Sequence record: MN642089.1
Origin: Klebsiella phage N1M2
Direction: 5' to 3' (one strand)
DNA length: 64,000 nt
Every line of letters begins with the position of its first letter. Within the stretch, counting starts at the first letter, position 1. A program made the translations under genes and the position numbers. Positions 3,715-63,399 of this stretch are shown one piece after another. Below the pieces are notes generated by a model. The model ran no database searches. It was not told where the DNA came from and was given only the letters and a program-made list of their open reading frames with translations.

Positions 3715-4452
3715 TTAAGGTTCTATAACTAACGTGGTTCTGACACTACGTGAGCTGCATTTAACATCGGCATTACTAAACCATACTTCATAGTTAGTGC
3801 TGCTTTTGTTAGCAACATATGTGGTAAAGGTCACTGTTTTCTCATCAATGATCTTAGCGTCTCTGATCCAGTTAAATGTATTGGATCTCCCAGCAGCCTC
3901 ACTATACGTATAGTCTCGTTGTACAACCAACTTGTCTGATGTTATACCATCCTCAGGAAGTTTGACTGTCCACACCCCCAGGTTTCTTTCTTTGTCATAG
4001 ACAACTGAAACTTCGCCTGGGCCAACAGGAATATAATCGAATTCTGTTCTAGACGTATACTCAACACCGTCAGCTAATATAACTATATTAGTGGCCGCGC
4101 TATCTGGCTTATTGACGATATTTATATGAGCACGCAGACTGGTTTCTCCAAAGAGACCGTTTTCTCTCTTCCTTATTTTTAACGGACCAGTACCGCCCCA
4201 GATACCGGGCTCAAATCCTTTTACTTCCCACTCATTAATATAGGTAGTATTCCCTTTCTCATCAATGACTCTGAATGTTCCAAGTACTGAAGATTTGACC
4301 ATGTTATCCCATTCGGTAACTAGTTGGTTACCTCCTGTATACCCATAGCGCTGTTCAAATAAGATTGCAGGTCTACCCATATAACCATTGACCGCTCCAA
4401 ATGAAAATAATAACTGTTTTAAGTCAACAATGTGACCATAGGATCCGAACAT
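3715..4452 (-). CDS. hypothetical protein (245 aa)
   Basis: ORF in same-strand operon downstream of HEG; start directly follows GC hairpin. Confidence 0.5.
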   Translation of the reverse strand: MFGSYGHIVDLKQLLFSFGAVNGYMGRPAILFEQRYGYTGGNQLVTEWDNMVKSSVLGTFRVIDEKGNTTYINEWEVKGFEPGIWGGTGPLKIRKRENGLFGETSLRAHINIVNKPDSAATNIVILADGVEYTSRTEFDYIPVGPGEVSVVYDKERNLGVWTVKLPEDGITSDKLVVQRDYTYSEAAGRSNTFNWIRDAKIIDEKTVTFTTYVANKSSTNYEVWFSNADVKCSSRSVRTTLVIEP

Positions 4453-4455
4453 AGA

Positions 4456-4479
4456 GTAGGGTGGCTTCGGCCACCCTAC
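4456..4479 (-). terminator. perfect GC-rich hairpin GTAGGGTGGC-TTCG-GCCACCCTAC downstream of homing endonuclease gene
   Basis: 10-bp perfect inverted repeat with TTCG tetraloop seen directly in sequence. Confidence 0.6.
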
Positions 4480-4494
4480 TCATTATGATCTTAA

Positions 4495-5292
4495 TTAAAG
4501 TTCGAAGTCATTGAATGCGCCTTCTGCAACATTGGAATCGATTTGACCTACCAGGTAAGAACTAACCAAAGATTGTTTATCATGGGAGAAAGCCCAGCCA
4601 TTAACAATCTTCTTTCCATTAGATTTTAGAGCACGCCCTATCGATCTCCTAGATATTCCCAAGATTCCAGCACATTCATGGCTCGATTTGAATAACACGA
4701 GTTCAGTCCTGTCACTTATCTCAAGACCATAGAACATTTTACTTGTTCTGGTTCCGCTGTTATTAACTGAAAGTCCCTCTAATGTTATTTTCCATGTGTG
4801 GTCTAATAAAGTATCTTTATATTTATTGACAATCATTGTGCCTGAGACATTGGGAGTTCCAGCCCATCTTGATAGTTCTCGCAGAGAGTGTAGAGTGATG
4901 ACTTTTCCTGTCTTTACATTCTCTATCTTTATATGTTGGCTTGCTTTATTAAGTCCTGTCTTATATGCATGGAAGATGTTATCTGAATTGGTAGTCCATT
5001 CAAGATTGCTCTTAGTGCAGTCTAATTTATTACCATTAATGTGATTACAAGTTATTAGTTTGCAACCTTCTGGAAGATCTGGCCTTGGGCCATTAAATAT
5101 GGAACACACGGTGACATGAATAGTTATATAAGCCTGAACACCATAATCAGAGACGAGATTAACTGAACGATATCCATTACGGAGAAGGTCTTTCATTTTA
5201 AATTGGTCTTTCTTTCTCCTAACATCACCATTTTCATTTATCTCATAATTAGAGAACCCAGGTATGATTATCCAATTATCTTTATTATCCAT
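4495..5292 (-). CDS. HNH-family homing endonuclease (NUMOD4-like N-term, HNH core CNHINGNKLDCTKSNLEWTTNSDN, C-terminal HTH), free-standing downstream of nrdB; C-terminal 24 aa copy the NrdB tail
   Basis: motifs WIIIPGFSNYEINENGDV and C-x-H-x-N-G-N-x-x-D...N-L-E-W; start taken at second Met (GAGGT SD 5 nt upstream) because first AUG (5310) lies inside hairpin arm with no SD; six-frame ORF is 4495..5310. Confidence 0.8.
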   Translation of the reverse strand: MDNKDNWIIIPGFSNYEINENGDVRRKKDQFKMKDLLRNGYRSVNLVSDYGVQAYITIHVTVCSIFNGPRPDLPEGCKLITCNHINGNKLDCTKSNLEWTTNSDNIFHAYKTGLNKASQHIKIENVKTGKVITLHSLRELSRWAGTPNVSGTMIVNKYKDTLLDHTWKITLEGLSVNNSGTRTSKMFYGLEISDRTELVLFKSSHECAGILGISRRSIGRALKSNGKKIVNGWAFSHDKQSLVSSYLVGQIDSNVAEGAFNDFEL

Positions 5293-5304
5293 GAATACCT
5301 CATG

Positions 5305-5332
5305 CCCCATTTACCCAATTGGGTAAATGGGG
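5305..5332 (-). terminator. perfect hairpin CCCCATTTACCC-AATT-GGGTAAATGGGG between nrdB stop and HEG ribosome-binding site
   Basis: 12-bp perfect inverted repeat seen in sequence; abuts SD of HEG. Confidence 0.6.
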
Positions 5333-5343
5333 ATGTTGTTTAT

Positions 5344-6489
5344 TTACAGACTAAAATCCGCAAAGTCATCAGTGTCGACTGTTGAATCAATTTGCCCCAC
5401 AAGATAGGAGCTGATCTCAGCCTCCTGTGGGGCCACCTGAACGTTGTCAGACACCAACCAGGAGTTAATCCATGGGATTGGGTTAGTGGTAGTTGTAAAT
5501 GGCATACCGAGCCCGATAGCGTTCATACGGATGTTCGCAATGTATTCAACATACTGGCACAGGATCGGCTCTGACAGACCAATCATAGAACCATCTTTAA
5601 ACAGGTATGCTGCCCATTCTTTTTCTTGCTGTACAACTTCCAAGAACATGTCGATTGATTCTTGTTTGCATTCTTCAGCAATTTCAGCCATCTCTGGATC
5701 ATCAGCACCATTTGCAAACAGATTCAGGATATGCTGAGTGCCAGTAAGGTGGAGAGCCTCATCACGTGCGATGAGTTTGATGATCTTAGCATTACCTTCC
5801 ATCAGCTTACGTTCTGCGAATGCAAACGAGCAAGCGAATGATACATAGAAACGAATAGCTTCCAGGGCGTTAACTGATTGAATACACAGATAAAGCGCTT
5901 TCTTAATCTCACGCAGGGTAACGACAACACGTTTACCATTAACAGTGTGAGTACCTTCACCCAGGTAATAATACTGCTGGGTTAAAGCAATCAGTTTATC
6001 GTAGTAACGGGACACCGCACCAGCACGACGGGTGATGTGTTCGTTATCCACAACATCTTCAAACACGATAGAAGGATCGTTAACGATGTTACGGATGATG
6101 TGGGTATAGGAACGAGAGTGAATCGTTTCTGAGAAGCCCCAGGTCTCTGCCCATGTTTCCAGTTCTGGAATACTGATAATCGGAAGGAAGGCTACGTTAG
6201 GCCCACGACCCTGTACGGAATCCAGAAGCGTCTGATATTTGAGGTTACTGATGAAGATATGCTTTTCATGTTCCGGAAGGTTCATGTAGTCAATACGGTC
6301 ACGAGTAACGTCAACTTCTTCAGGACGCCAGAAGAAAGACAGTTGCTTTTCAATAAGCTTTTCAAAGATACCGTGCTTTTGTTGGTCATAACGAGAAACG
6401 TTAACGTTCTGACCCATGAACATGTGTTCTAACAGTTGGTTGTTTTTATTTTGGTTAAAAGTTGAATAGCCGGACATGTTTAACTCCAA
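5344..6489 (-). CDS. nrdB: ribonucleotide reductase class Ia small subunit (beta, R2)
   Basis: long identical stretches to E. coli NrdB as recalled ([92 protein letters not shown]-terminal [13 protein letters not shown] tail). Confidence 0.95.
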
Positions 6490-9351: not shown

Positions 9352-9639
9352 ATGAAAAGATTAGGAGCACTTGCATTTGTAATAGCATTAACTTTACCTA
9401 CCGCAGCCATTGCTGAATTACACGGTTCTATCTTCTTTAGAGGAGAGATCGTAGAAGTCCCATGCTCTGGTGTCAATAATAACACCTCTGCATTGGTACA
9501 ATGTAATCGAAAAGGCGAAAGTCCTAAAACCTTGAATATCAATCTTACTTCTACCAAAGATCAGTATATCGATGGTGTTAAAGTAAATTCTGATAACATC
9601 GGTAAGGGACTGTATACTGTAACTTTAACCATCGCATAA
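9352..9639 (+). CDS. small secreted protein with fimbrial-subunit-like N-terminus (signal peptide MKRLGALAFVIALTLPTAAIA|ELHGSIFFRGEIVEVPCS)
   Basis: AAGGAG SD 7 nt upstream of ATG 9352; G-x-I-x-F-x-G-E-I-V-x-x-P-C pattern typical of chaperone-usher pilin N-termini but protein only ~75 aa mature. Confidence 0.4.
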   Translation: MKRLGALAFVIALTLPTAAIAELHGSIFFRGEIVEVPCSGVNNNTSALVQCNRKGESPKTLNINLTSTKDQYIDGVKVNSDNIGKGLYTVTLTIA

Positions 9640-9644
9640 ATCAA

Positions 9645-9677
9645 AGAGAGGCTTCCGAAAGGAGGTCTCTCTCTTTT
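9645..9677 (+). terminator. imperfect hairpin AGAGAGGCTTCC-gaaa-GGAGGTCTCTCT followed by TTTTT
   Basis: seen in sequence after stop at 9639. Confidence 0.55.
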
Positions 9678-9722
9678 TGTACCTGAACATAAATAAATTG
9701 AAATCACTTAAGGAGTATAGAA

Positions 9723-10124
9723 ATGAAAGTAACTGTAGATTTAACCGCACCTGAATCTCACCCTACCTCTAAATTACCTAAAGCTTTGCGTGAGTTCTGG
9801 TATTTCAAAGATGGTGAAGAACTTCGCCGTTTGATCGACTATACTGGTTGCCCTAATACCGGTTGCCAACATGCACTCCGTGTTTGGGGCGAGCGCGCTG
9901 ATGTTACTGCATGGTTGGATTTGTTCCAAGAAACCTATCCCGAAACAGAGCCAGAGATCATGCTGATTAAAAGTAAGATTCGTCTAGCTTTCGTGCACGG
10001 CACTGGTTTGAATAAGCTGGGTGGGTTGACTGTTGATCTTAAAACCATTACCCGTCAGGTTGGGTATAATGGCGAGATCCTGACCCGCCCTTACTTCTGG
10101 GCCCCATTCTGGGAAGAACGTTAA
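9723..10124 (+). CDS. hypothetical protein
   Basis: ORF with AAGGAG SD. Confidence 0.5.
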   Translation: MKVTVDLTAPESHPTSKLPKALREFWYFKDGEELRRLIDYTGCPNTGCQHALRVWGERADVTAWLDLFQETYPETEPEIMLIKSKIRLAFVHGTGLNKLGGLTVDLKTITRQVGYNGEILTRPYFWAPFWEER

Positions 10125-10125
10125 T

Positions 10126-10410
10126 ATGGAATTCTTAAAAGACTTCTGTAGTCTTCGCCATGGCGATATAATGGATAAAGGTATGTTCTACCTTATCGTG
10201 ATCGTATTTTTACTTATATTGGCATTACCATTTATTATCATACATGATAAGATGGAAATGACTGATGCAAATTGTATTAAGACCACTCAATCCAGAGAAA
10301 ACTCTCATATTCAGTTTATCTATGGTGACAAAGGTCAGATCATAAGTGCATACCCTGTCACCACAACTGAATATCTATATACCTGCGACGATTACCCAAG
10401 GTGGCGTTAA
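10126..10410 (+). CDS. hypothetical small membrane protein
   Basis: TM segment FYLIVIVFLLILALPFIII. Confidence 0.45.
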   Translation: MEFLKDFCSLRHGDIMDKGMFYLIVIVFLLILALPFIIIHDKMEMTDANCIKTTQSRENSHIQFIYGDKGQIISAYPVTTTEYLYTCDDYPRWR

Positions 10411-10411
10411 A

Positions 10412-10831
10412 GTGAAAAAGCAATTACATGTTAATGAAGTCATTGACAGACTTCGTGGTCCTGATGAGATTGTACCTGTTTCTATTAACTTTGAGGACGT
10501 CCTTAGTTATAAGGATTGTACTTATGGTGATGAAACTTCCATTGGTAAAACTTACATTAGGGTAATCAGCAGTGAACGTGGTTACTTAGTAACTGAAAAC
10601 TATAATACCGTAAGAAAGATGATGGAAGATCTTCGTTTAGAAGATCTGCGTCCTTGTTACCGTGTTAAGATCGGCTACCAGGTTCATTACGTTCCTAAGA
10701 ACGAAGTTGAACATATTGCCATTGATGAAGAGAACTCACATACAACTTTGATTCTCAAATCTGGCGATAAGATCAAGACTAATCAGACCATGATCGAACT
10801 TCGTGAATCCGCAATTGAAATCCCATTTTAA
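10412..10831 (+). CDS. hypothetical protein (GTG start after AGGTGG SD)
   Basis: six-frame ORF 10346..10831 trimmed to GTG at 10412 with good SD directly after upstream stop. Confidence 0.4.
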   Translation: MKKQLHVNEVIDRLRGPDEIVPVSINFEDVLSYKDCTYGDETSIGKTYIRVISSERGYLVTENYNTVRKMMEDLRLEDLRPCYRVKIGYQVHYVPKNEVEHIAIDEENSHTTLILKSGDKIKTNQTMIELRESAIEIPF

Positions 10832-10841
10832 AGGTTAAGAA

Positions 10842-11006
10842 ATGAAACAGACTAAAGGTGTTACTCGCCGAGATCTTATTGCTTTCTTCGCAGGTAGTGC
10901 CTTTAGTCCAAAGGCAAAGATCGAAGATTTAATAATTGATACCGTATTAGGTAAACAAGCTAGCACATTAATCAACTTTAGAAAGAGGTTCTTAAATGGA
11001 AAGTAA
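10842..11006 (+). CDS. small hypothetical ORF (54 aa)
   Basis: ATG with AAGGT SD filling otherwise non-coding gap; below ORF-track size cut-off. Confidence 0.3.
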   Translation: MKQTKGVTRRDLIAFFAGSAFSPKAKIEDLIIDTVLGKQASTLINFRKRFLNGK

Positions 11007-11766
11007 AAACAAAGACTGGTTCAAATACGATACTTACTGGCGCCAATGGTCCCGTGTAATTTGTCGTGGTGGTGGAAACTATGATCACGAGATCAGTATT
11101 CCGCTGACCCCTATTAATGATGAAGCAAGTGAATGGTCTCAACTGTCAGAGATCCGCATACACCGCTTCGATGTTCGTTATGCTGCATTCCGCGATAAGA
11201 ATAAGTACACTCACGTACTTCCTGATTCGGTGGTGGAGAAAATGAAGGCTAACTTATCTGCTAATAAAATAGAAGTCCTTCTTCATTCAAACATCCTTCC
11301 GTTAATCGATTGGGATAAGTACATCGAACTGGGTGATTCTGAAATGTCGATAATCCATTGTTCTATGGAACAGACAGGTTTCTTTAACCAGTTGTATGCT
11401 GGAAGTAATTCGAAGGAAACCTTCCCAACTGCGGAACAGTTTAAACGTGAGTATGGAATCCATATTCCGGAAGACCACATTCTCTTAGGTGGGATTTATC
11501 ACCAACATGGTGATGATCATGTACGTTGTCATGGTGTTCATGATCTAGCCAATAACACTATTTCTTTTGAAGTATTGTTGGATGGTAAAGATTATACTAT
11601 AGCAACTCGTTTCTCAGGTCGTTTGGGCGATATCGAATCAACCTGGGATATGAAGTTATTGAACTTTATGCAATCATCCCCCTATATCAAAATAGAAACT
11701 TTTGATGCAGTATTGCAGATGGTTGCTAAAACAAATAACAATCTCAACGTTTTCAAAAAGAACTAA
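10996..11766 (+). CDS. hypothetical protein (256 aa)
   Basis: ORF with AAGAGG SD. Confidence 0.5.
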   Translation: MESKNKDWFKYDTYWRQWSRVICRGGGNYDHEISIPLTPINDEASEWSQLSEIRIHRFDVRYAAFRDKNKYTHVLPDSVVEKMKANLSANKIEVLLHSNILPLIDWDKYIELGDSEMSIIHCSMEQTGFFNQLYAGSNSKETFPTAEQFKREYGIHIPEDHILLGGIYHQHGDDHVRCHGVHDLANNTISFEVLLDGKDYTIATRFSGRLGDIESTWDMKLLNFMQSSPYIKIETFDAVLQMVAKTNNNLNVFKKN

Positions 11767-15026: not shown

Positions 15027-15247
15027 AGTTAACCTTCTTCATCATCTTGCTGATATTAACATTCGTTATCTTTAACGGTGTTGTCTTGCATTGTTATGGT
15101 GAAGAGTTTGACAAAGACTTATATAACTTCATTTGGAAGTTTAATCTTTGTTTGTCTTTATTCTTGGCGTACATCACGTACGCCTTCTTTAATATGTTAA
15201 TCGACTATCGTTACCCAACTGGAACTGAAGATGAAGACTTTGAATAA
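15011..15247 (+). CDS. small hypothetical membrane protein (possible TTG start after GGAGGAG)
   Basis: hydrophobic ORF; start uncertain. Confidence 0.25.
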   Translation: MERTLKLTFFIILLILTFVIFNGVVLHCYGEEFDKDLYNFIWKFNLCLSLFLAYITYAFFNMLIDYRYPTGTEDEDFE

Positions 15248-16421
15248 ATATGAAGCCTGGTATATGGAACAGCTCAATAACATTATTGAGAACGGTCAGC
15301 GTCGTGGAGACCGTACAGGTACTGGTGTTATTTCATTACCTGATTTGGAATATCGTCATGATCTCCGTGAATCCTATCCGGTAACTTTCTCTCGTTGGTT
15401 TAACCTGCAGTTCCCTATCATCGAGATTCTCTGGATGATGTCTGGTGAATCAAACATCCAACGTCTGAAAGAAAATGGCTGTCCATTCTGGAATGGCTTT
15501 GCGGTTAAAGGTGACAAGATCGCACCAACCGAGCTTTCCATTACTGAGCGTCTGAAACTGCTGGCTAAAAAGCAGGGTGTCCCTTATGGTAAGGTTCTTC
15601 AAATCTTCGGTAGTGAGCGTCCTGAAGATATTACCATCGAACTGGACAAACAGCAGATTCCTAACACCCAGGATATGCTGATTGCTAAAGACGGTGATCT
15701 TGGTCCGGTGTACGGTGTTCAATGGCGACATTGGCCTAATCCGGATGGGACTACTTTCGATCAGCTGGTTTATGTATTGGAAACCCTCCGTAAAGATCCT
15801 GACAGCCGTCGTGTGGTCGTTGACTGTTGGAACCCAAGCTATCTACCTGATCCTAAGAAGAGTCCTGCAGAGAACGCTGTAGACGGTAAAATGGCATTGA
15901 CTCCTTGTCACTTCACTTTCGGTTTCTATACTTGGGAAATTCCTTTCCATGAACGTGTAGAAGAACTGAAGAAAGTTTGTAGTCGTCAGGAATGGATGTC
16001 AGTTTATCCAATCTATAAAGGTAGTGAGACAATGTTGAAGATCGATCACTTGATCGAGAAATACAATGTCCCTAAATACTATCTGGACCTTAAATACGTC
16101 ATGCGTAGTAATGACTGGATCTTGGGTCAACCGGCTAACATGAACATGTACTCTGCCATGTTGATGATGTTTGCGAAAGAACTGAATATGGTTCCTCGCT
16201 ATGTCAAATACACTGGTTGGGATGCGCATGTTTATACCAACCACCTGGAAGGCGCTGAAGAACTGAATAAACGTTGGGCTGAGAAGACTCACAAGTTCTC
16301 AACAATCAAGATGGATCTGGATACAGAACCAAAAGGTTTGTTCGGTTACCACCAAGATGACTTTAAGATCATCGGTAAGTATGAACCTATGGATCGTATT
16401 AAGTTCCCTATCGCCATCTAA
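15231..16421 (+). CDS. thyA: thymidylate synthase family enzyme (ThyA-like) with two large insertions; dUMP-specific by retained Asn177 equivalent
   Basis: GDRTGTG, GDLGPVYGVQWRHWPNPDG, DPDSRRVVVDCWNP, MALTPCHFTFGFY (catalytic Cys), RSNDWILGQPANMN, C-terminal PIAI; 396 aa vs ~264 aa for E. coli ThyA. Confidence 0.85.
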   Translation: MKTLNKYEAWYMEQLNNIIENGQRRGDRTGTGVISLPDLEYRHDLRESYPVTFSRWFNLQFPIIEILWMMSGESNIQRLKENGCPFWNGFAVKGDKIAPTELSITERLKLLAKKQGVPYGKVLQIFGSERPEDITIELDKQQIPNTQDMLIAKDGDLGPVYGVQWRHWPNPDGTTFDQLVYVLETLRKDPDSRRVVVDCWNPSYLPDPKKSPAENAVDGKMALTPCHFTFGFYTWEIPFHERVEELKKVCSRQEWMSVYPIYKGSETMLKIDHLIEKYNVPKYYLDLKYVMRSNDWILGQPANMNMYSAMLMMFAKELNMVPRYVKYTGWDAHVYTNHLEGAEELNKRWAEKTHKFSTIKMDLDTEPKGLFGYHQDDFKIIGKYEPMDRIKFPIAI

Positions 16422-18173: not shown

Positions 18174-18212
18174 TATATTTAGTTAAACACTTTATTTTTG
18201 TCTGGAGAAATA

Positions 18213-18860
18213 ATGTCACCTAAATTAGTATTGGCGTTCGACATGGACGACACTCTTGTAGATACTTATGGTTTTATTTACAACCACATGTTGCAGTTCT
18301 ATACTGACCGTGGTATGGAAACCGAATTAAATTATATCATGGATATGCACGCCAAAGGTTTTAGTAGCTTAAGCTGGCGTAAAGATGAATCTGACGATGT
18401 GTTCTATCAGATCATCAAGAAACATACTTATATGGTTGATGCTAAACCAACCATGTTGCTCTCCAATGACTTCATCTCTATCTGTAATCGACTGATTGAA
18501 AGATATAAAGATGACGTTCAGTTTGTTATTTGTACACATCGTGGTTTTACAAGCCATGGGCAACCATTAACTGAAGAGTGGTTAGAGAAGTTTGAAGTCG
18601 ATCATATCTTCAAAACTGTTCATGCCCTGGATCGTAAAGAACATGCTAACAAAGTAGCGTTCTTGAAAGAACAATATCCTGGGTCTGAAATCCGTTTAGT
18701 TGACGATAACCCAATGCATGATGGTGAAACTGTTCATCCTTATATGCCTGAGTTAGTTATCTATGATAAGATTACTGCGTTACCGGGTTATGCTAATCAG
18801 CGTAAGTGGACCGGTAATCTTTCTTTCTTTAATATGTGCTACCAAATCCTTAAGGACTAA
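18213..18860 (+). CDS. HAD-superfamily phosphatase, probable 5'(3')-deoxyribonucleotidase
   Basis: HAD motif I LVLAFDMDDTLVD; ATG 18213 with GGAG SD (six-frame ORF starts at TTG 18198). Confidence 0.6.
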   Translation: MSPKLVLAFDMDDTLVDTYGFIYNHMLQFYTDRGMETELNYIMDMHAKGFSSLSWRKDESDDVFYQIIKKHTYMVDAKPTMLLSNDFISICNRLIERYKDDVQFVICTHRGFTSHGQPLTEEWLEKFEVDHIFKTVHALDRKEHANKVAFLKEQYPGSEIRLVDDNPMHDGETVHPYMPELVIYDKITALPGYANQRKWTGNLSFFNMCYQILKD

Positions 18861-18862: not shown

Positions 18863-19486
18863 ATGAATATTTCTACTACTTCTAAACTTTCTTCATTCAT
18901 CCACTATACCACTTACTCTATGATCGTTGCTGTTGACGAAGCGGGTGGTATCGGCATTGATAATAAATTACCTTGGCCTAAGTGCAAGGAAGATATGCAG
19001 TGGTTCCGTTCTCAGACTTTGGGTAAAATCATCGTCATGGGTCGTAAGACTTTTGAATCGATCGGATCCAAACCTCTCCCTGGTCGTATCAACATTGTTA
19101 TTGGTTCCAAACTGGAACCAGAAGTAGCTCGTACTTTTAATAAAGAAAATGAAGGTAACAAAGACGCAGGGTATCTGATGTTTGTTCCTTCTGTTTCTAA
19201 AGCTAAAGAAATGATTTCAATGACCGCTGGTACACTTCACAATGGTGGTGAAGTAATGGTCATCGGTGGTGCTTCCATTTATGAGGCATTCTGGAACGAC
19301 ATTGGTCGAGTCTACCTTACTACTTTCAAGGATACCTTTAATACTGACGTTAAGATCCACATGAATCTAAATCAATTTGAATTGGTTTATCGAGATGACC
19401 GTTCAGTGTTGGGTCCTAAGTTTGAAATCTATGATGCTCAACAAACCTTCCGTGTTGAACGTAAAGACACTTCCCGTTTTGCTTAA
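18863..19486 (+). CDS. folA: dihydrofolate reductase
   Basis: MIVAVDEAGGIGIDNKLPW...MGRKTFESIG..PLPGRINIVI typical DHFR N-terminal signature. Confidence 0.85.
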   Translation: MNISTTSKLSSFIHYTTYSMIVAVDEAGGIGIDNKLPWPKCKEDMQWFRSQTLGKIIVMGRKTFESIGSKPLPGRINIVIGSKLEPEVARTFNKENEGNKDAGYLMFVPSVSKAKEMISMTAGTLHNGGEVMVIGGASIYEAFWNDIGRVYLTTFKDTFNTDVKIHMNLNQFELVYRDDRSVLGPKFEIYDAQQTFRVERKDTSRFA

Positions 19487-19502
19487 TTGAGAGATAAAGT
19501 AA

Positions 19503-19757
19503 ATGTTTAAGATTCCGGCTGATATGATCGGTAAAGTTCGTGTTGGTGAAACTTTGGTTATTACCAAAATTGGTCATGGTAAAGCTTCTATCTGTGGAGA
19601 ACATGTGGTAGTTGAAGTTCCATCCAAAGATCGTAAATTGGGTGAACGGTTCTTTGCTACTGGTGATAACCGTTTAGTTAAACGACTAAGTTTGACTAAT
19701 GTCGTTTCAACCTGTAAAGAAACTCAGATTGTCTTTAAAGGCAAACGTATACAATAA
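19503..19757 (+). CDS. hypothetical protein
   Basis: ORF. Confidence 0.45.
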   Translation: MFKIPADMIGKVRVGETLVITKIGHGKASICGEHVVVEVPSKDRKLGERFFATGDNRLVKRLSLTNVVSTCKETQIVFKGKRIQ

Positions 19758-19766
19758 CAACTAATA

Positions 19767-19790
19767 AAGGGGATGGGTAACTATCCCCTT
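19767..19790 (+). terminator. hairpin AAGGGGAT-gggtaact-ATCCCCTT
   Basis: 8-bp stem after stop. Confidence 0.45.
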
Positions 19791-19802
19791 AGGAGTAATG
19801 TC

Positions 19803-19940
19803 GTGCATTTCTTATTAGAGCTATTAGCACTATTCGTAGGTGCTATCGTTATGGGGTTCGTATCTTTCTTAGGGTATGAAGCATTTAAGTACTTGAAAAC
19901 CCGTGCGGTAAAATTTTTCAAACAGATATTATCTAAGTAG
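19803..19940 (+). CDS. small hypothetical membrane protein (45 aa, GTG start after AGGAG)
   Basis: hydrophobic ORF below size cut-off; promoter motif copy overlaps its 3' end. Confidence 0.25.
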   Translation: MHFLLELLALFVGAIVMGFVSFLGYEAFKYLKTRAVKFFKQILSK

Positions 19941-19945
19941 TAAAG
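19917..19945 (+). promoter_or_regulatory. promoter-like motif copy (TTCAAACAGATATTATCTAAGTAGTAAAG)
   Basis: family consensus upstream of ClpP-like gene. Confidence 0.45.
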
Positions 19946-19958
19946 TAGAAATAATAAA

Positions 19959-20618
19959 TTGGAGATGATGATGTCTGAACAAATAACTGCGTTAGATTCT
20001 AGAGAAGTTTATCCAATGGAAATCATTGGGGTGATCTCAGAACAATCTAATCCAGCAATCATGGCTAAGATTCGTGGGAACACTAAACGCTTACCGTATC
20101 ACATCTATACCAGTGGTCCAGGTGGTAATGTGGCAGCTGGGTTCGCGATAATGGACATATTAGGATCCATGGATGTGAATGTAGTTTATTTCATCCAGGG
20201 TTTCTGCGCATCGATGAATGCGTGCTTTGTTCAGGATCGTGATTTCCTGAGATTGTGCTATCCGCATACTCGATTCATGTTCCACAGTTCGATGTTGAAG
20301 TTAGAGGGGAATGAGGAAACTATCGATAACCTCTACAAGAACCTTAAGCTTTATGATTCTGAAATTATTCAGGTCGTGGCTGATGGTGTCGGAATGGAAT
20401 TCAAAGAAGCTAAACGGAAACTGTTCACCTATGATAAATTCTTTATGGGTAAGGATTTATTAAAGCTGGGCGAAAACGGTGCTGTAGATGGCATCATTCA
20501 AACTGATCTGGGTGACCATAAATATCTGTGTGAAACTCGCGATGGATTGAAAGTGATCGATACTTACATTCATCAACGTTCAGACATTAAAGAACTTCCA
20601 CTGTGGGTGAAATCGTGA
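19959..20618 (+). CDS. ClpP-family serine peptidase homolog (Ser-His-Asp triad conserved)
   Basis: IYTSGPGGNVAAGFAIMD, GFCASMNAC (Ser), RLCYPHTRFMFH (His), YDKFFMG (Asp) align with E. coli ClpP INSPGGVITAG / GQAASMGA / RFCLPNSRVMIHQP / RDRFLSA. Confidence 0.75.
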   Translation: MEMMMSEQITALDSREVYPMEIIGVISEQSNPAIMAKIRGNTKRLPYHIYTSGPGGNVAAGFAIMDILGSMDVNVVYFIQGFCASMNACFVQDRDFLRLCYPHTRFMFHSSMLKLEGNEETIDNLYKNLKLYDSEIIQVVADGVGMEFKEAKRKLFTYDKFFMGKDLLKLGENGAVDGIIQTDLGDHKYLCETRDGLKVIDTYIHQRSDIKELPLWVKS

Positions 20619-21037
20619 ATCAGTTACTATGGATATTCTTGGGTATGGGTTGTGGGATCTATATCTTAATAGGTCTCTGGGTATTAGGTAATTACTTCTG
20701 GTGCTTCGGGACGGCACAGAGTAATCCAACCACTAAAATTAAATTCATTAACACCCTTATCTCCATTGGTCTAATTCTGCTATGGCCATTCTTTTATCTG
20801 TGGTTAGGGTGTGTGATCATTTATGACTATATCCAACACCTCAAGACTAAGAAAAAGAAAGTTCGTCTTTATACTTGCATAGGTAAGGGCGGTCGTTATA
20901 AATGTTACGGAGAAACTATTGGAGCAGGTACATCCAAAGGTGAGTCCGTGGTTATCTATCAAGACATAGATAGCAAGAAACTATTCCATCGTACCAGAGA
21001 TGACTTTGATAAACGCATGAAGCTGCTTGATAAGTAA
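20603..21037 (+). CDS. hypothetical membrane protein
   Basis: N-terminal TM segments. Confidence 0.45.
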   Translation: MGEIVNQLLWIFLGMGCGIYILIGLWVLGNYFWCFGTAQSNPTTKIKFINTLISIGLILLWPFFYLWLGCVIIYDYIQHLKTKKKKVRLYTCIGKGGRYKCYGETIGAGTSKGESVVIYQDIDSKKLFHRTRDDFDKRMKLLDK

Positions 21038-21085
21038 TCTGTAATAAACCAACCTCACTAACTTTAGAAAATAGGAATCAAGAAT

Positions 21086-22645
21086 ATGTCTTCCATCCTG
21101 ACTGAACAAACCTTCACCAATGCATCTGAAACTCGCCAGATCGTAGACGAAGTAATGAACAATGCATTTGAATCTGTATGTTCTACCATGGGACCGAATG
21201 GTCGTTATGTTGTAATCAATCAGCTGAATAAACCGAAGGTCACCAAAGATGGCGTGAGTGTAGCGAAAGCTCTGGATTTCGGTGAAGCTCGTCGTAACCT
21301 GATCGCTCAGATCATCACGGAGCCGTCAATCAAAACCGATAACGAAGTTGGTGATGGCACAACTACAACTGTGTTTATGACCAACCACCTGTATCGTGCA
21401 TTTGGTTCGCGCATGACTTTCCGTAATGTTCGTTATGTTGATAGCCTGATTCAACAAGTCCATGATTATATCGGGACATTGATTATCCCTGGTAATCTTC
21501 ACAGTGAAGAATTCCGTAACATGTTGATGACTTCTTCGAACTATGAAGAAGAGATTGTCGATAAAGTTCTGGAGATCTTCAAGTCTAACCAGAATCCAAA
21601 TATCACGCTGCAAAATACTCCGGCGCTTCCTAAGGATGAGATCGAGTTCACTAAAGAAATTAAATTCGATGGTGAATATGGTCAGAACAGTTATGCTCCG
21701 GCAAGTGGCGTTACTGTGGTCCCTACCGATAAAGCATATGTGGTGGTGGTTGATGGTAATGTACGCAGTATCCCTGCAGAGTTCCTTAGTCGTATGGCCT
21801 TTAAAGCTACTCAACATGCGGTCATTCTGATTGCTCGTAACTTTGATCCATCGGCAATGGCACAGATCAATAACGAGAACCAACGACTGGGTATTATGAA
21901 GTTCATCCCATATAAGGTTGCAGCGGCAGGTTCTTTGGGTACTGATACCATGAATGACCTGGGTAAGATTCTGGGACTGAGTCCAGTATTTGAACTGGGA
22001 AGTTATGATTATGATCGTGCTGTTACCAACCAGTTCGATATGTATCTGACAACCTCTGGTCTGCAGTTCGATAAAGACAATGCTGAGATGGAAGCCATCA
22101 CTGACGAGATCTTAGAAGGTCTGGATGTTCGTTGGGAAGCGCTCTCTATCGTAGAACGTCAAACTCCTGTCGGTCTGGCATTGGCACGTCGTATTGCTCG
22201 ACTGCGTGCAAACAACATTATCCTGAAAGTAACTGGGGTAACTCCAAGTGATGCAACTGAACGTTATTATCGCTATGAAGACGTTGTTAAAGCAGCGAAG
22301 ACTGGTTTGCAGTTTGGTGTGATTCCTGGTATTGGTTATGGCTATCTGATGGCATCTAACGTCATTGCTGCCTTGCCTGAACAATCTGATGAGGAGCTTG
22401 AGATCTGTCGTAAGAACTTGATCCAGGTATTATGTGCTCAATATGAACACTTAACTGGTCATGATTATACTGGCGGAACTCCTACCTTTATCGATCTGGT
22501 AACTGGGGAAGAATCTGATACACCTATGAATGTATTTGATAATGCCGCGGCTACTATGATTGCTCTTAAAGGTGCTTGGCAAACTGCCAAGACTTTGGGC
22601 AAGATCAGTAATGTAATGGGCCGTTCTAATAAGTCTTATGCATAA
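21086..22645 (+). CDS. GroEL-like (group I) chaperonin homolog
   Basis: GPNGRYVVINQ..PKVTKDGVSVAKALDF and GDGTTTTVFMT match GroEL GPKGRNVVLDK..PTITKDGVSVAREIEL and AGDGTTTATVLA; 519 aa; no GGM tail. Confidence 0.75.
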   Translation: MSSILTEQTFTNASETRQIVDEVMNNAFESVCSTMGPNGRYVVINQLNKPKVTKDGVSVAKALDFGEARRNLIAQIITEPSIKTDNEVGDGTTTTVFMTNHLYRAFGSRMTFRNVRYVDSLIQQVHDYIGTLIIPGNLHSEEFRNMLMTSSNYEEEIVDKVLEIFKSNQNPNITLQNTPALPKDEIEFTKEIKFDGEYGQNSYAPASGVTVVPTDKAYVVVVDGNVRSIPAEFLSRMAFKATQHAVILIARNFDPSAMAQINNENQRLGIMKFIPYKVAAAGSLGTDTMNDLGKILGLSPVFELGSYDYDRAVTNQFDMYLTTSGLQFDKDNAEMEAITDEILEGLDVRWEALSIVERQTPVGLALARRIARLRANNIILKVTGVTPSDATERYYRYEDVVKAAKTGLQFGVIPGIGYGYLMASNVIAALPEQSDEELEICRKNLIQVLCAQYEHLTGHDYTGGTPTFIDLVTGEESDTPMNVFDNAAATMIALKGAWQTAKTLGKISNVMGRSNKSYA

Positions 22646-22653
22646 CTAAGATC

Positions 22654-22677
22654 GAGCTGAGGGTAACACCTCAGCTC
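22654..22677 (+). terminator. hairpin GAGCTGAGG-gtaaca-CCTCAGCTC
   Basis: 9-bp perfect stem after stop. Confidence 0.6.
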
Positions 22678-22709
22678 GCTTAGACTCATTCTCCTTATTT
22701 TTTTTTCTT

Positions 22710-22955
22710 ATGAACAAATTAATTAAAGAAGAGTTAAAGAAACATTTAGAAAGTGGTGATTTCTGTGTAACCGTTTGTATTGGTGAAACGACCTTTCTAT
22801 GTTTTCCTTTATTACACTCTGTAGATATCTATAGGCTAGAAGGGAATCATCTAACCCACCATGAAAAGGAAATCAGCCCTGATCTCGATATAGATGAGAT
22901 AGAAACTTATTGCATCTATATAGAAGAACGGTGTCTAGCTGATAACAATAAGTAG
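22710..22955 (+). CDS. hypothetical protein
   Basis: ORF. Confidence 0.4.
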   Translation: MNKLIKEELKKHLESGDFCVTVCIGETTFLCFPLLHSVDIYRLEGNHLTHHEKEISPDLDIDEIETYCIYIEERCLADNNK

Positions 22956-23005
22956 GAGATTTATCTCCCCTATAGTGGCTCTTTGATTTTCAGGAAGTAT
23001 GGAAT

Positions 23006-23303: not shown

Positions 23304-23888
23304 ATGTCCAGTTTGTACTTTTACCACAGTTCAATGAATGCGGGTAAATCAACAACATTGCTACAAGCCAACTACAACTATCATGAGCGCGGGATGAAGA
23401 CTCTTGTTCTTAAGCCAGCTATTGATACTCGTGAAGGCAAAGCTGTAATACGTTCACGTATCGGGCTTGAAGCTGAATGTGTCATGTTCGAAAAACATGA
23501 TAACCTATTCTGGGTCATCCAAAGCCTGATTGGATTAAAACCAAATCCACATTGCATTCTTATTGATGAAGCACAATTCCTAACCAAAGAGCAGGTCATT
23601 CAACTTTCAGAGATTGTTGATCAACTCGATGTTCCGGTATTGTGTTATGGGCTGCGGTCTGATTTCCAAGGGAACTTATTCCCAGGGTCGGCTGCGTTGT
23701 TTGCTTTAGCTGATAAACTCGAACGTGTCAAAACGATTTGTTGGTGTGGTAGAAGTGCTCACATGGTTTTGCGTCTTGACTCTGAAGGGAAAGTGGTACG
23801 TGAAGGTCAGCAAGTGGATGTAGGTGGGAATGATAAATACATTTCGGTTTGCCGCAAACACTTTAAGTCTGGTCAAACTCACGCTTGA
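23304..23888 (+). CDS. tdk: thymidine kinase
   Basis: LYFYHSSMNAGKSTTLLQANYNYHERGMKT (P-loop), LIDEAQFL, VLCYGLRSDFQGNLFPGS, CWCGRSAHMVLRLD, YISVCRKH closely parallel E. coli Tdk. Confidence 0.9.
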   Translation: MSSLYFYHSSMNAGKSTTLLQANYNYHERGMKTLVLKPAIDTREGKAVIRSRIGLEAECVMFEKHDNLFWVIQSLIGLKPNPHCILIDEAQFLTKEQVIQLSEIVDQLDVPVLCYGLRSDFQGNLFPGSAALFALADKLERVKTICWCGRSAHMVLRLDSEGKVVREGQQVDVGGNDKYISVCRKHFKSGQTHA

Positions 23889-46059: not shown

Positions 46060-49000
46060 TTAATTCATTCTCACCATTGGGGAATTACTAGAGCTGCGTT
46101 CCAACAACTGAGCAATCTTGTTAAGCGTTTGGTTAGCTATAGCAAGTTGACCTGCTGCGGTAGCATCTGTAGTATTGATATGATCAGGCATTGCAGGAGC
46201 TTGAACAACTTGAGGCATGGCCTGCTTATCAACTGGTTTAGCCGCTTCTTTAACTGGTGCTGGTTGAGCACTATTAGAAGAAGGACTAGAAGATGAAGTA
46301 GGAGCCCTAGGTTGATCGATAGATGGAGCACTAGAGTTAACTGTATTCACCGGACCATCATTAGTATCACCTGCAGCCACACCAGGATCGAGCGTTGAAG
46401 CTGTCTTCATTGGCGGTGGAGTACCTGCATTAGATGGTGCGGTATTGCGTGCATCTGATTTCAACAAGTCGCTAACGGTATTCTGACCAGGAGGTGTTGC
46501 GATTGGAGTATCTGTAGCTACGGCTCCTTGAGGAACACCTTTATCTGCTGCCGCAGGTGGTTCATTAGTTGGTGCTGGAGGAGTTGCAGCTGCTTGTTCG
46601 GCTTCTGCCCCATCTAGCGCTAAATCACCATTGCGGAGTTTATTCAGATATTCCTGATAGTATCTACGACGTTCATCTGTAGCTGGTACAGCATTACCGC
46701 CATTGATACCACGAACCGCTGTATCGAAATCACCCGTCTTAGCAATAGACAACATTGCCTTGTTGTTCTTAAGGAATCTAACAGCTGATTCAGCCATTAC
46801 ATTAGGATCCTCAGAAACCAACTGCGGATTACTAACAACATCGATACCCGTTTCTTTCTTGAACCGTTCGTAGTTTGCTTTACCAGTTAACTGGAAGAAA
46901 CCACGCCCACGATATTTCCAACCATCCTCAGGTGTAGTGTTTCCTAATTGTGGACCTTTAGGTGCACGACCATATACCCACATCGCTCGTTCAGCAGGAG
47001 ACATTGCTGCAACCTTCTGAGCTGTAGCGGCATCAGGAATGTTCTTAAAGTATTTCAGCAAGGTAGGTGCGGACCAGTTGGTGTTTTCCACCGTGTTCTG
47101 GTAGTTACCTGTTTCTTTCTTAACCATTGCCAAAGCAAGTGCGATAGTTTTAATATCAGTTATCCCAGCTTTAAGTAGGTGGTTAAGCATGAGCTTCTCA
47201 CCTTGCTCTGGGGACATCTTAATACCTTTATCTTCACCGGCCTTCTTCAAGAACTCTGGGTTAAAGTTAGCATCAGCTTTACCCATGAACTGACCTGCTG
47301 ACCCAGCACCGCCACCATCAACACTCATGGTAGGGTTAGGATAGACACTAGTGGGTCCGCCAGTTCTTACACCGTTCATAGATGGGGTGAATGAAGACCC
47401 ACCAATACCTTTGTTATTACCGAAAACTTCTTGGATAGCAGATTGAGCAGCTTGTCTACTTCTAGCAGCTTGTGCCATCTGAACTGGATCATCACCGCTA
47501 GTACCGCGAGATTTCTCTTCTTCCAACTCAGGATCTTTCAGTCTAGCTTCCTGTGCTTTCATATCCAAGATTTTCAGATATCTATCAGCACGGTCAGACC
47601 ATTTACCTGAAGTAGAGTTAGGGAATGGAGAAGCCTGAACTTCCCAAACAGTTTTAAGTTGTTCATCAACTGTCACCATTTGTTCGGTTAGTTTTCTAGC
47701 GACTTTGGCACGATTAGTAGCCGATAATTGTTTCCAACCTCTTTCCGGAACCACACCAGTTAATTTCTTAACCTCAATAGTGTATGTCATTAACGTAGGG
47801 AGGAATCGATCACGGAACCAAGTCATCCAATTCATCTCAGCCAGTTTAGTAGAGATTCTGAATGCTGGTTTAAACAGTTCTAACAGTTGAGAAGACTTAC
47901 CAGTGAATCTGGCTTGATCCCCAATTACCATGATGTAGGATTCGACATAACGTTCCAGACGCAATACCGCTTCCACACGCCAAGGCATGTTATCAATGTT
48001 ACCATAAACCGCAAGACGAGTCATGACGAATGGATCCATTTCCTTATCGCCACCAGGCATCAAGTCAGAGATATCAATCGTCTTAACTTGCTCTGGTTGA
48101 GAGAAACGTTTCTCAATGTCATCCATAGAAGCACGAGCTGCTATTTTAGACATCGCGTCTTGAGCAGTTATTTCAGCACTTGGACCAGTTTCTTTAGGAA
48201 CGCCTGGTGCTTGAGCTTTAGCATTAGCCTCTACCGTCGGTGCAATTTTCTCAACCGTAGTTGAAGGCTTAGGATAAGATTTTTCCATATCCTTAAGCAC
48301 TGCATCGATTTTGTGTCTCGTTGATTCCGGACCCATTGTGCCGTATTTAGAATCGACACGGACATCGATGGTAAATGGATTCGGCGAGAACGTATTCAGT
48401 GTTTGCTGAACTCTTTCCAATACCTGTACAACTTCATATCCCTTGGCATTATCGAATGACTCGATATCACCCATTCTTGCCACAGAGACTGCCGCGTTAG
48501 TGACAAGGAACACTGGTTTGAAACGAGCTACGAACCAAGTCTGAATAGCGCCTGCGTCGTGGTTAGTTCCTGAGTCGGTGTTCATGAAGTCAGTTAAGAT
48601 CTTCTCAATAGGTGCATCTTTCTTCAGAGAAGCACGATTATCTCGGATGGTGACGTAAGGATAAAGAACTTGTTCTAACCAACCCAGACGACGTCCAAAT
48701 GAAGATTGTTGATCAGCACAACCATACATAGCAAAACGAACGGCACGTGGTTGTGTAGCATACTGGGTTTTCAGTTCCCCGTATCCATCAGGAGTTTTAG
48801 AAACACCCTTGATCTTATCTTCATAAGCTTCCATCTCGTCTCGTTTAAAGAAGAACTTCTTATCACTTGACCAGAATAATCCATAGTTGTCCAGACCTTC
48901 TCTGGTTTCCTTATCCATAGGTAAGGAATCGGTAGCAGCTTTGGCCAACATACCAGATGGTAACCATTGGGTCAGTACATCAACTACGGCATCGCCTTGA

Positions 49001-61812: not shown

Positions 61813-62549
61813 TGGAAATAGAAAAGCTGAAGAAAGATCGTGGGCGGATTGATTCCGCCCTTAAAGTCATGCCAGATGGAAGCGTGGTTGCTTTAAAGAA
61901 ACTTACAGTTTGTTTTCCTAAGCGTTTCGAACAAAGCAACTTAGCAGAAATTTCAGATACCGTCACTTGCATTTTAATGTTGGGTGTTATCGTTGGTGAC
62001 GCATACGGTTTCCTGGGTGGGATGGTTAAAGTTAATCTCCTCCCAGGAGATATCTATGAAGAAACAATTGGAAACGATCGTTACTTCATGCTTGAGTTTG
62101 AACCTGGTGATATTGTTATTGAATCGTTGACTGTTCCTATGGACTCCAACATCGGTTACTATTATTACCTTGAGTTCACCAAGTATGCTCGTATCCCATG
62201 GTATTTTGATGCTGCTGATTTACTTAGTGTTTATGATGAAGCTAAGTTCTATACTGGCAAGTCAATGGGGACAAGTAACCAAGCCATTCGCGTATTCTAC
62301 GCTTTGACTCAACGTGATCCTAAAGACTTAGGTATTCCGTTCCGTTACTCGTCAAGTCTCAAAGACCCAGCAGTGAAACCTCGCATTATCGGTATTAACA
62401 ACCCAGGGCAGTTGCTCAACTCTACCTTCAGCCGTTTGGCTTCTGGTTATATGTCTGACAACATCATCTCTGGTATTCTTAATCCTGATACTAAGGTTAC
62501 ACATCTGGAAGAAGTTATTCGTGGCCTTCCGGCTGCAGGTGGTAATTAA
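61812..62549 (+). CDS. hypothetical protein
   Basis: ORF, TAATG overlap. Confidence 0.5.
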   Translation: MEIEKLKKDRGRIDSALKVMPDGSVVALKKLTVCFPKRFEQSNLAEISDTVTCILMLGVIVGDAYGFLGGMVKVNLLPGDIYEETIGNDRYFMLEFEPGDIVIESLTVPMDSNIGYYYYLEFTKYARIPWYFDAADLLSVYDEAKFYTGKSMGTSNQAIRVFYALTQRDPKDLGIPFRYSSSLKDPAVKPRIIGINNPGQLLNSTFSRLASGYMSDNIISGILNPDTKVTHLEEVIRGLPAAGGN

Positions 62550-62550
62550 G

Positions 62551-63399
62551 ATGGATGAAATTAGTTTAGGTAATATCGTTCTTGCTCATTCAGGTAAGAA
62601 AGGTATTCTTCGTCCTGACGCTGATGGTCTGTATGAATTAAACGCTGGGGGTTTTAATATCCCCAACCATGCTGGTATTACCTATCCAGCTAATGAATAC
62701 ATCATCTCTCAGATCGAAGAGAACAGTGACCTTAACCGTCGTGTTAAAATGGGTTACTGCAAGATGGAAGTTGAGCACCCTGAACCATTTATTTATGTCA
62801 TTGAAAATGGTGTGAAGTATCGTGCACCTATGACTGACGTTATTCAGTGGATCAACCGTTTGCGTTCTTTCGACCCAGATCGTATCTGTGGTTTGATCAG
62901 TCAAGTTATTTGGCGTCCTGAAGACAACCGTAACTTATCCAAACCTATTTGGAACCTGATCAAATGTAAACCATTCGGTCCGCGTGGTCCTGAGTTCCAA
63001 GAATCTCTGGAAACTCCTCAGCATAACACGGCTGTTAGTATCCGTACTCAGATCTCCCCATTCCGTCCTGGTGAACTCCAGAAGAACGTTGAATACTGGA
63101 CTGGTTATGATTGGGTATCTGAGCCTGGTATGGTTCATGCTAACAAACACATGACTGCTGGTTGTGAATCCTTCTTGAATGATTTTGGTATGGTTGACAA
63201 CATGAAGAAATTCAAAGTTGCCGACGTTATCGAAAAACTTGATCATGCTCTTGCTACAGCAACATCTGGTGAAGAACTGGATCGTGTTGGTGGTATGGAA
63301 GCACTTGGTCAATATCGTGACATGCTGTCAGCGATCAAGAAGAACTACCGTGCTGGTGAAACCACCACTATGGGCGTTAGCTTTACTGATATCTTCTAA
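62551..63399 (+). CDS. hypothetical protein
   Basis: ATG 62551 right after upstream stop; six-frame ORF extends to 62521. Confidence 0.5.
   Translation: MDEISLGNIVLAHSGKKGILRPDADGLYELNAGGFNIPNHAGITYPANEYIISQIEENSDLNRRVKMGYCKMEVEHPEPFIYVIENGVKYRAPMTDVIQWINRLRSFDPDRICGLISQVIWRPEDNRNLSKPIWNLIKCKPFGPRGPEFQESLETPQHNTAVSIRTQISPFRPGELQKNVEYWTGYDWVSEPGMVHANKHMTAGCESFLNDFGMVDNMKKFKVADVIEKLDHALATATSGEELDRVGGMEALGQYRDMLSAIKKNYRAGETTTMGVSFTDIF

Follow-up and report, generated by a model that had tools for sequence, protein, structure and literature searches.

A ClpP-fold peptidase gene in front of an OBP-type chaperonin gene in Klebsiella phage N1M2: a candidate early proteostasis unit

The locus studied here raises the question of what a ClpP-like serine peptidase gene does just ahead of a GroEL-like chaperonin gene in a phage genome. 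Both genes lie on the plus strand of Klebsiella phage N1M2 (MN642089.1), within a stretch of 64,000 nucleotides that was analysed at its full length and is called the window below. The two open reading frames (ORFs), 19959-20618 and 21086-22645, were confirmed, and a single plus-strand ORF (20603-21037) was found between them. A first-pass annotation, made from the letters of the DNA, had read the two genes as a proteostasis pair that could remodel host or phage proteins early in infection. Having analysed the locus in its genomic and evolutionary context, we lean, if only slightly, towards an early-expressed proteostasis unit, in which a gp246-like chaperonin is accompanied by an unfoldase-independent, ungated ClpP-fold chamber peptidase as an accessory partner. 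The chaperonin half is already known, being of the OBP gp246 type. The ClpP-like half is a new ClpP variant: it scores below the family thresholds of both canonical ClpP and the head-maturation proteases, it carries a distinctive C-terminal module, and its operon context was previously undescribed.

The pair is not invisible in earlier records. Both genes are annotated in GenBank for N1M2, OBP (gp244/gp246) and other phages, while the main text of the N1M2 paper is silent on them (PMC7058600). In Aeromonas phage Z90, ClpP (ORF191) and GroEL (ORF192) are listed side by side as 'assembly-related', without analysis (PMC12837969), and Iyer et al. 2021 (PMC7824862) remarked on the presence of ClpP among jumbo phages. 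Beyond the Z90 listing, no functional description of the pair was found in the literature searched. Thus, the earlier claim that the two genes had not been described as a module stands for their function but not for their adjacency, which can be seen in the annotations of OBP and Z90.

The ClpP-like peptidase and its C-terminal extension

The start of the ClpP-like gene had to be revised. By sequence, we place it at ATG 19971, not at TTG 19959, because the TTG overlaps a Shine-Dalgarno sequence (GGAG, 19961-19964), the homologues begin with MSEQ and the N1M2 protein is 215 aa long. The unusual MEMMM N-terminus on which the first-pass annotation remarked is therefore an artefact of ORF calling. 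The 215-aa protein is 100% identical to UniProt A0A6B7ZF63, 'Putative ATP-dependent Clp protease subunit [Klebsiella phage N1M2]', as found by a match in a viral structure library.

The assignment of this protein to the ClpP family was borne out by Pfam, in which it matches CLP_protease (PF00574; MEROPS clan SK/S14 fold) with an E-value of 2.1e-12 and 47.7 bits, vs a gathering score of 20.2. Solved ClpP structures are matched at E ~1e-9, with Pseudomonas aeruginosa ClpP1 among the best matches in the PDB. The AlphaFold2 model has a mean predicted local distance difference test (pLDDT) score of 89.9 and includes the long handle helix, and Foldseek superimposes it on ClpP structures with a template modelling (TM) score of ~0.8 and a root-mean-square deviation of ~2 A over ~170 columns. 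The protein is indeed diverged, as had been proposed: its identity to bacterial ClpP is ~20-24%, and it reaches 36-42 bits where the curated cut-offs are 228-361. Specifically, it scores 36.1 against a cut-off of 308.6 for TIGR00493 and 42 against 249 for PRK00277 (NCBIfam), which places it below the canonical ATP-dependent ClpPs.

Only an exhaustive profile search, run over 1.84 billion representatives, allowed the size of the family to be judged; a word-indexed protein search gave 11 relatives only. About 45-50 cluster representatives matched the profile over its full length, 29 of them at E <=1e-30. Generic ClpPs came next; their match ends at about position 183 and lacks the C-terminal extension described below. 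No further family members were found in a scan of IMG/VR, a scan of JGI metagenomes gave only three generic ClpP-like loci, all without the extension, and no second copy was found in the window.

The active site was examined in an alignment of 50 family members with E. coli ClpP (numbering of the window protein from ATG 19971; E. coli precursor numbering for the triad). The results showed that S81, H105 and D155 of the window protein align with S111, H136 and D185 of E. coli ClpP, in agreement with the earlier statement that all three catalytic residues are retained. Ser and His are invariant (50/50 each), the third position is Asp in 39 and Glu in 8 of the 50 members (acidic in 47/50), and the oxyanion Gly is kept in 49/50. 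The ratio of nonsynonymous to synonymous substitution rates (dN/dS), calculated against the Yubaba orthologue, is 0.07, below the 0.13 of the chaperonin gene; both values are approximate, as dS is near saturation. On these sequence grounds, the protein is taken to be an enzyme that is under selection and competent in catalysis, rather than a decaying remnant or nothing but a decoy.

What the family appears to have given up is the unfoldase interface. The N-terminal loop and helix-A segment is absent from the alignment, consistent with the axial loop having been reported missing in the first reading. The columns of E. coli L23/L24 (helix A) are deleted in 48/50 members and that of F49 in 47/50, only 15 residues precede strand 1 vs 28 in mature E. 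coli ClpP, and the AlphaFold2 model shows no helix ahead of the strand at residues 16-24. The docking pocket was assessed at the E. coli residues that we take, from the ClpP-ADEP and ClpX-ClpP structures, to form it. L48 is mostly replaced by Arg, F82 is Ser in 31/50 members, M92 varies or is polar and only 15/50 retain Y62, whereas I90, F112, L114 and L189 remain hydrophobic; altogether, 5-6 of the 11 positions are deleted or polar. The hydrophobic pocket for the IGF/IGL loops of ClpX/ClpA has thus probably been lost for the most part. The Arg of the inter-ring Asp-Arg sensor (E. coli R170) is likewise not conserved in the family. No ORF with a significant match to ClpX was detected in the window; tblastn of E. 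coli ClpX against all phages gave 346 records, which may include weak matches in OBP-like phages.

At the opposite end of the protein, ~40 residues have been added that have no equivalent in ClpP. In the AlphaFold2 model this extension forms a three-stranded beta-sheet followed by a short helix. Among the close homologues, no other segment is as conserved (...CETRDGLKVIDTYIHQRSDIKELPLWVK), and Pfam has no match for it. In known structures, the C-terminus of ClpP comes out on the apical face, next to the docking pocket. By analogy, the extension would be expected to sit on the face where unfoldases dock.

The chaperonin, the membrane protein and the transcription unit

The last gene of the stretch encodes a GroEL homologue, as the first-pass annotation had held. 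Cpn60_TCP1 (PF00118) is matched at 4.8e-15, with 55.6 bits vs a gathering score of 34.3; the Pfam alignment covers residues 30-105 only, and the NCBIfam GroEL models align residues 9-437. Much stronger matches were obtained with phrog_5725 'chaperonin groEL' (6.4e-122) and with the cryo-EM structure of the OBP chaperonin (6hdd; E 4.4e-214 over residues 6-519), followed by EL gp146 (2e-49). By tblastn, the protein is 63.7% identical to OBP gp246, the gene of which occupies the same genomic position, between DHFR and TK. The GDGTTT nucleotide-binding motif is present at residues 89-94, aligned with that of E. coli GroEL, the C-terminus (...GRSNKSYA) has no GGM repeats, and no GroES/Cpn10-like ORF was found in the window, so that these parts of the earlier description are upheld. 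The canonical GroEL equivalog TIGR02348 gives 101.6 bits, vs a cut-off of 582.1. By sequence, the protein thus belongs with the phage chaperonins and not with canonical GroEL. OBP gp246 is a single-ring heptamer that is ATP-dependent and co-chaperonin-free, suppresses the aggregation of a phage endolysin and refolds this endolysin in vitro (PMC9598537); the N1M2 chaperonin is, by analogy, most likely also a single-ring heptamer acting without a co-chaperonin. The view that phage GroEL homologues are rare and limited to a few jumbo phages could not be maintained: tblastn gave 251 phage records, 145 of them at coverage of at least 80%.

The protein encoded between the two genes is a small membrane protein with two predicted transmembrane (TM) helices, a lysine-rich linker and a nearly invariant C-terminal domain of 55 aa. 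Because its homologues begin with MNQLLW, its gene most likely starts at GTG 20615, which would overlap the stop codon of the ClpP-like gene as GTGA. This 4-nt overlap, which also occurs in Yubaba and in four metagenomic contigs, suggests translational coupling of the two genes. The C-terminal 55 residues (YTCIGKGGRYKCYGETIGAGTSKGESVVIYQD..LFHRTRDDFDKRMKLL) are near-invariant among homologues that share 55-94% identity overall, and they have no Pfam or fold-search match. A suspected likeness of this domain to DUF1653 was unsupported by Pfam even at E-values up to 10. The AlphaFold2 model of the whole protein is poor (pLDDT 67.5) and has no match in the PDB by Foldseek at E <=0.001. The TM gene stands beside GroEL in 10/11 loci of the OBP clade, including those of pEt-SU and Survivor, which both lack the ClpP-like gene.

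Signals that could delimit a transcription unit were found on both sides of the three genes (Table 1). Ahead of the ClpP-like gene lies a copy of the phage-specific promoter consensus common to N1M2 and OBP, which in OBP was deemed early from its position before early operons (PMC7058600). The same motif stands just 5' of the first gene of the cassette in 10/11 orthologous loci. No copy of the motif and no strong hairpin occurs inside the ClpP-TM-GroEL stretch, where the scan gave a weak 7-bp terminator-like stem (20205-20224, within the ClpP-like ORF) as its sole hairpin, and a scan for sigma-70 promoters gave fewer matches in the region than in shuffled controls. Directly 3' of the GroEL stop codon, a hairpin with a T-rich tract is present in 12/12 loci, although the stem sequences are unrelated. 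This hairpin is probably a terminator or attenuator that closes the ClpP-TM-GroEL unit, and the hairpin upstream of the promoter motif probably ends the preceding (HAD-DHFR) unit. The ClpP-like, TM and GroEL genes would accordingly be co-transcribed as one unit, with expression presumably early.

In the window as a whole, the promoter motif (TTTCARRYAKATATTATYWAAGTG, <=3 mismatches) occurs six times, always on the plus strand (6703, 7720, 17694, 19916, 23905 and 41540), where shuffling predicts 0 occurrences. Its copies mark the starts of plus-strand gene arrays, for example directly after the divergent gene for the small subunit of ribonucleotide reductase (RNR). After 19916, the next copy is that at 23905, 3' of TK.

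Table 1. Features of the ClpP-TM-GroEL locus and of its surroundings in the window
Feature	Position	Strand	Basis or remarks
ClpP-fold serine peptidase, 215 aa	19971-20618	+	Pfam, AlphaFold2, Foldseek, triad, dN/dS
Catalytic codons of the ClpP-like gene	Ser81 20211-20213; His105 20283-20285; Asp155 20433-20435	+	
C-terminal extension, ~residues 179-215	20505-20615	+	alignment, model, profile search
Small membrane protein, 140 aa	20615-21037	+	PHROGs 12584/9878 (function unknown)
GroEL-like chaperonin, 519 aa, OBP gp246 orthologue	21086-22645	+	PDB, tblastn, PHROG
OBP/N1M2 'early'-type promoter motif TTTCAAACAGATATTATCTAAGTA	19916-19939	+	one mismatch to consensus; 32 nt 5' of the ClpP-like ATG
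Hairpin and T-run 3' of GroEL	22646-22709	+	core stem 22653-22678, extended 22646-22684, -24 kcal/mol; T-run 22698-22709
GC-rich hairpin after the 84-aa ORF	19767-19790	+	equivalent hairpin in the same place in Yubaba, OBP and SXP01, with different stems
ThyA	15231-16421		Pfam
HAD phosphatase	18198-18860		Pfam
DHFR	18863-19486		Pfam
TK	23304-23888		Pfam
Prohead (head-maturation) protease, Peptidase_S80, phiKZ gp175 type; context only, outside the unit	62521-63399	+	Pfam, PHROG

Conservation of the pairing and competing explanations

The first-pass annotation had proposed a search for the gene pair in related phages, and the pair was found to recur. With a profile made from 8 orthologues and the filters switched off, we located a ClpP-like gene directly 5' of GroEL or of TM-GroEL in the window and in Yubaba, OBP (gp244), SXP01, AH04, Kc263, ZPAH34 and LAh10. 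The coordinates of tblastn matches gave the same order in Sureiya, D3, D6, D9, AhC3_1, ACP1, AVP1 and AerS_266, and six metagenomic contigs share the layout DHFR-84aa-ClpP-TM-GroEL-TK. The chaperonin is present in every phage record with a member of the ClpP-like family; the converse is often false.

Several of these loci carry annotations of other kinds. The GroEL-like genes of Yubaba (locus 9594-11153) and Sureiya are labelled 'hypothetical protein', the ClpP-like gene of the Shewanella phage SXP01 (locus 3857-4516) is unannotated, that of LAh10 is labelled 'hypothetical', and RefSeq re-annotations call several ClpP-like orthologues 'head maturation protease'. For this family, both that label and 'ATP-dependent Clp protease subunit' are probably wrong. 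Kosakonia phage Kc263 has two ClpP-like paralogues, one 5' of GroEL and the other (P0008) divergently adjoining the RNR small-subunit gene, and one metagenomic contig has a paralogue of this second type in the same place. Such paralogues recall ClpP1/ClpP2 pairs, and by analogy the formation of hetero-oligomers is conceivable.

Under the reading that we lean towards, the early-type promoter motif would drive the ClpP-like gene, the coupled gene for the two-TM protein and the chaperonin gene, and the unit would end at the hairpin and T-run. The chaperonin would bind and refold non-native phage proteins with ATP and without a GroES lid, as a single-ring heptamer. The ClpP-like chamber peptidase, being ungated, would remove polypeptides that are unfolded or misfolded, or certain proteins of the host, at an early stage of infection, and would serve beside the chaperonin as an accessory, not obligate, 'fold-or-degrade' partner. 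N-terminally truncated ClpPs degrade unfolded substrates without an ATPase, which makes a stand-alone mode of action plausible for the ClpP-like protein. The data establish the gene identities, the fold, the conservation of the catalytic residues, purifying selection, the conserved gene order with its promoter motif and hairpin, and the separate prohead protease; we infer the early timing, the co-transcription, any functional link of the protease with the chaperonin or the membrane protein, and the ATPase independence, substrates and oligomeric state of the protease.

A number of observations weigh against this reading. No ClpP-like gene was detected up to 5 kb from GroEL in three phages of the same clade (pEt-SU, Survivor and pAEv1810) or in the more distant Miami, RisingSun, EL (including ORF145) and pTD1, where nothing scored better than E 0.2. 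By sequence comparison, the ClpP-like gene has been lost several times while the chaperonin stayed, and is dispensable for the chaperonin; the OBP, EL and AR9 chaperonins, moreover, work alone in vitro (PMC9598537). The paralogue of Kc263 and of the metagenomic contig sits away from GroEL. All phages carrying the pair belong to one clade, and inherited synteny and functional constraint therefore cannot be separated by these data. The pocket residues were mapped through a sequence alignment of ~20% identity, which makes the loss of the pocket probable, not proven. Regarding transcription, TK and two small genes beyond the hairpin behind GroEL lack their own motif ahead of the next copy, so that this hairpin may attenuate rather than terminate. 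Finally, the expectation of activity early in infection is supported indirectly by the early-type motif 32 nt 5' of the start, a motif class that was called early from genomic position alone (PMC7058600).

The points on gene loss, on the displaced paralogue and on the single clade would all be accommodated if the two genes were independent accessory genes of an inherited OBP-like early unit, syntenic without being functionally coupled, with the protease acting on host proteins in takeover or anti-defence. Patchily distributed peptidases such as ClpP have been read as anti-host by Iyer et al. 2021 (PMC7824862). We regard this explanation as possible though rather unlikely, since the ClpP-like gene stays 5' of GroEL or TM-GroEL, behind the same motif, while GroEL diverges to ~42% identity; this adjacency survives local rearrangement (the TM gene has moved upstream in ZPAH34 and LAh10), and the chaperonin is present wherever a phage record holds a member of the ClpP-like family. 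Another possibility is that a canonical ClpP core, forming tetradecamers alone or mixed with host ClpP, hijacks host ClpX/ClpA to degrade selected proteins. Such a role would suit the ClpP fold with its handle helix and triad, the bacterial ClpPs (including P. aeruginosa ClpP1) that are its best PDB matches, and the GenBank label 'ATP-dependent Clp protease subunit'. However, the axial loops and helix A are deleted, about half of the pocket has been deleted or is polar, the family does not conserve the inter-ring sensor Arg, the scores of ~36-42 bits are far from the ClpP equivalog and subfamily cut-offs, and the C-terminal extension would, by analogy, be expected on the very face where an unfoldase docks, all of which makes hijacking improbable.

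The first-pass annotation had also considered that the ClpP-like product might turn out to be a prohead protease lying beside capsid genes. Its best PHROG matches are indeed 'head maturation protease' families (phrog_2976, 1.5e-10), and NCBIfam Clp_rel_HeadMat (NF045542) is matched with 41.5 bits, which is far below the cut-off of 120. The neighbours are, however, nucleotide-metabolism genes (ThyA, DHFR and TK), and a separate Peptidase_S80 gene (PF20034, E 1.9e-69; phrog_3014, 1.6e-73) adjoins virion structural genes elsewhere in the window, which rules out the ClpP-like gene as the prohead protease. S80 is the family of phiKZ gp175, the demonstrated morphogenetic protease of phiKZ-like phages (PMC5694885), and its homologues were found in 243 phage records across the phiKZ-like group. 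What could still be argued is that the ClpP-like protein is a second morphogenetic protease, which cuts a subset of capsid or inner-body proteins beside the S80 enzyme; besides the matches just given, the RefSeq re-annotations and the Z90 paper, which place ClpP under head maturation or assembly, and the diverged second protease paralogue of SPN3US (PMC5694885) could be cited in its favour. We consider this the most improbable of the explanations, because the gene lies behind an early-type promoter and in no head module, because an S80 enzyme dedicated to the prohead is present here and throughout the wider group, and because pEt-SU, Survivor and pAEv1810, close relatives with the same virion, do without the ClpP-like gene.

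A bolder form of the fold-or-degrade partnership can also be imagined, in which a heptamer of the ClpP-like protein, with its conserved C-terminal 'crown' replacing the unfoldase-docking surface, docks coaxially and with matched symmetry (7:7) on the open heptameric single ring of the chaperonin, and the two-TM protein might tether the complex to a membrane. If true, this would make a protease that is coupled to the chaperonin, a chamber that folds or degrades, or else a proteolytic lid for a GroES-less chaperonin. We hold such a complex to be highly improbable, and it cannot be obligatory for the chaperonin, which is retained where the ClpP-like gene is lost.

Genomic setting, significance and comparison with known systems

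The window originates from an OBP-like, nucleus-forming (phiKZ-related) jumbo phage, N1M2. Its closest DNA records in the phage collection searched are those of the Serratia phages Yubaba and Sureiya (Petsuvirus, ~255 kb), with 79% nucleotide identity over 19500-23000. The window also encodes split phiKZ-type RNA polymerase beta subunits, RNR, a UvsX-like recombinase and a helicase, and the genes around the ClpP-like gene include, in addition to those for nucleotide metabolism (ThyA, DHFR and TK), a HAD phosphatase gene, all assigned by Pfam. The thymidylate synthase is unusually long (396 aa), and its Pfam match is split into two stretches: residues 11-234 span profile positions 3-154 only, which implies an insertion of ~70 residues. 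The enzyme is of equal length in relatives such as Yubaba and ERZ14207137.

Three further ORFs of the window deserve mention. Immediately 5' of the ClpP-like gene, a small ORF (19773-19940) encodes 55 aa from ATG 19773, or 45 aa from GTG 19803 (Shine-Dalgarno sequence AGGAG). Its start lies inside the upstream hairpin, its 3' end overlaps the promoter motif, and it is conserved in Yubaba and SXP01 only; it may not be a real gene. An HNH endonuclease gene (4495-5310, minus strand; phrog_59, 7e-35) adjoins the RNR small-subunit gene (5344-6489, minus strand) and likely encodes a homing endonuclease. An ORF of 2395 aa (46060-53247, minus strand) has a short Glyco_hydro_19 (chitinase/lysozyme-like) match near residues 2107-2160. 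Its product is probably a virion-associated protein that degrades the cell wall, presumably of the phiKZ gp181 kind.

The significance of the locus lies in the partners that it offers to a known chaperonin type. Phage chaperonins of the OBP/EL/AR9 type are studied as a possible third chaperonin group and are lidless and apparently always open. In the search for their natural clients and cellular context, a ClpP-fold peptidase and a membrane protein are concrete candidate partners. The peptidase itself would represent a stand-alone ClpP variant, in which the unfoldase interface has been swapped for a conserved C-terminal module. Should it act early in infection on host proteins or on misfolded phage proteins, nucleus-forming phages would have in it a new element of proteostasis; the practical impact would be modest unless a physical chaperonin-protease complex exists.

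Compared with bacterial ClpP (MEROPS S14; E. coli 1TYF and P. aeruginosa ClpP1 7m1m), the ClpP-like protein shares the fold, the handle helix, the Ser-His-Asp triad and the oxyanion Gly. It differs in lacking the axial loop, helix A, most pocket residues and the sensor Arg, in having no cognate clpX gene that could be found in the window, and in possessing the conserved C-terminal beta-sheet of ~40 residues, which bacterial ClpP does not have. The ClpP-related head-maturation proteases of phages (NF045542; PHROGs 2976/133/1684) resemble it as phage-encoded ClpP-fold serine proteases with a reduced N-terminus, and both are presumably ATPase-independent, although the profile similarity is weak (E ~1e-10). 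Unlike these proteases, the ClpP-like protein is encoded outside the head module, is fused to neither scaffold nor capsid and has its own C-terminal extension. For the chaperonin, the closest known systems are OBP gp246 (6hdd) and, more distantly, EL gp146 (6tmt) and AR9 gp228. The N1M2 protein and OBP gp246 have in common the GDGTTT motif, a C-terminus without the GGM tail and a locus without a nearby GroES gene, and only sequence divergence sets them apart. The ClpP-like gene has its counterparts in OBP gp244 and in the 'Clp protease' genes of Yubaba, Sureiya, Kc263, AH04, ZPAH34 and Z90, which belong to the same family, carry the same extension and occupy the same position 5' of the chaperonin gene.

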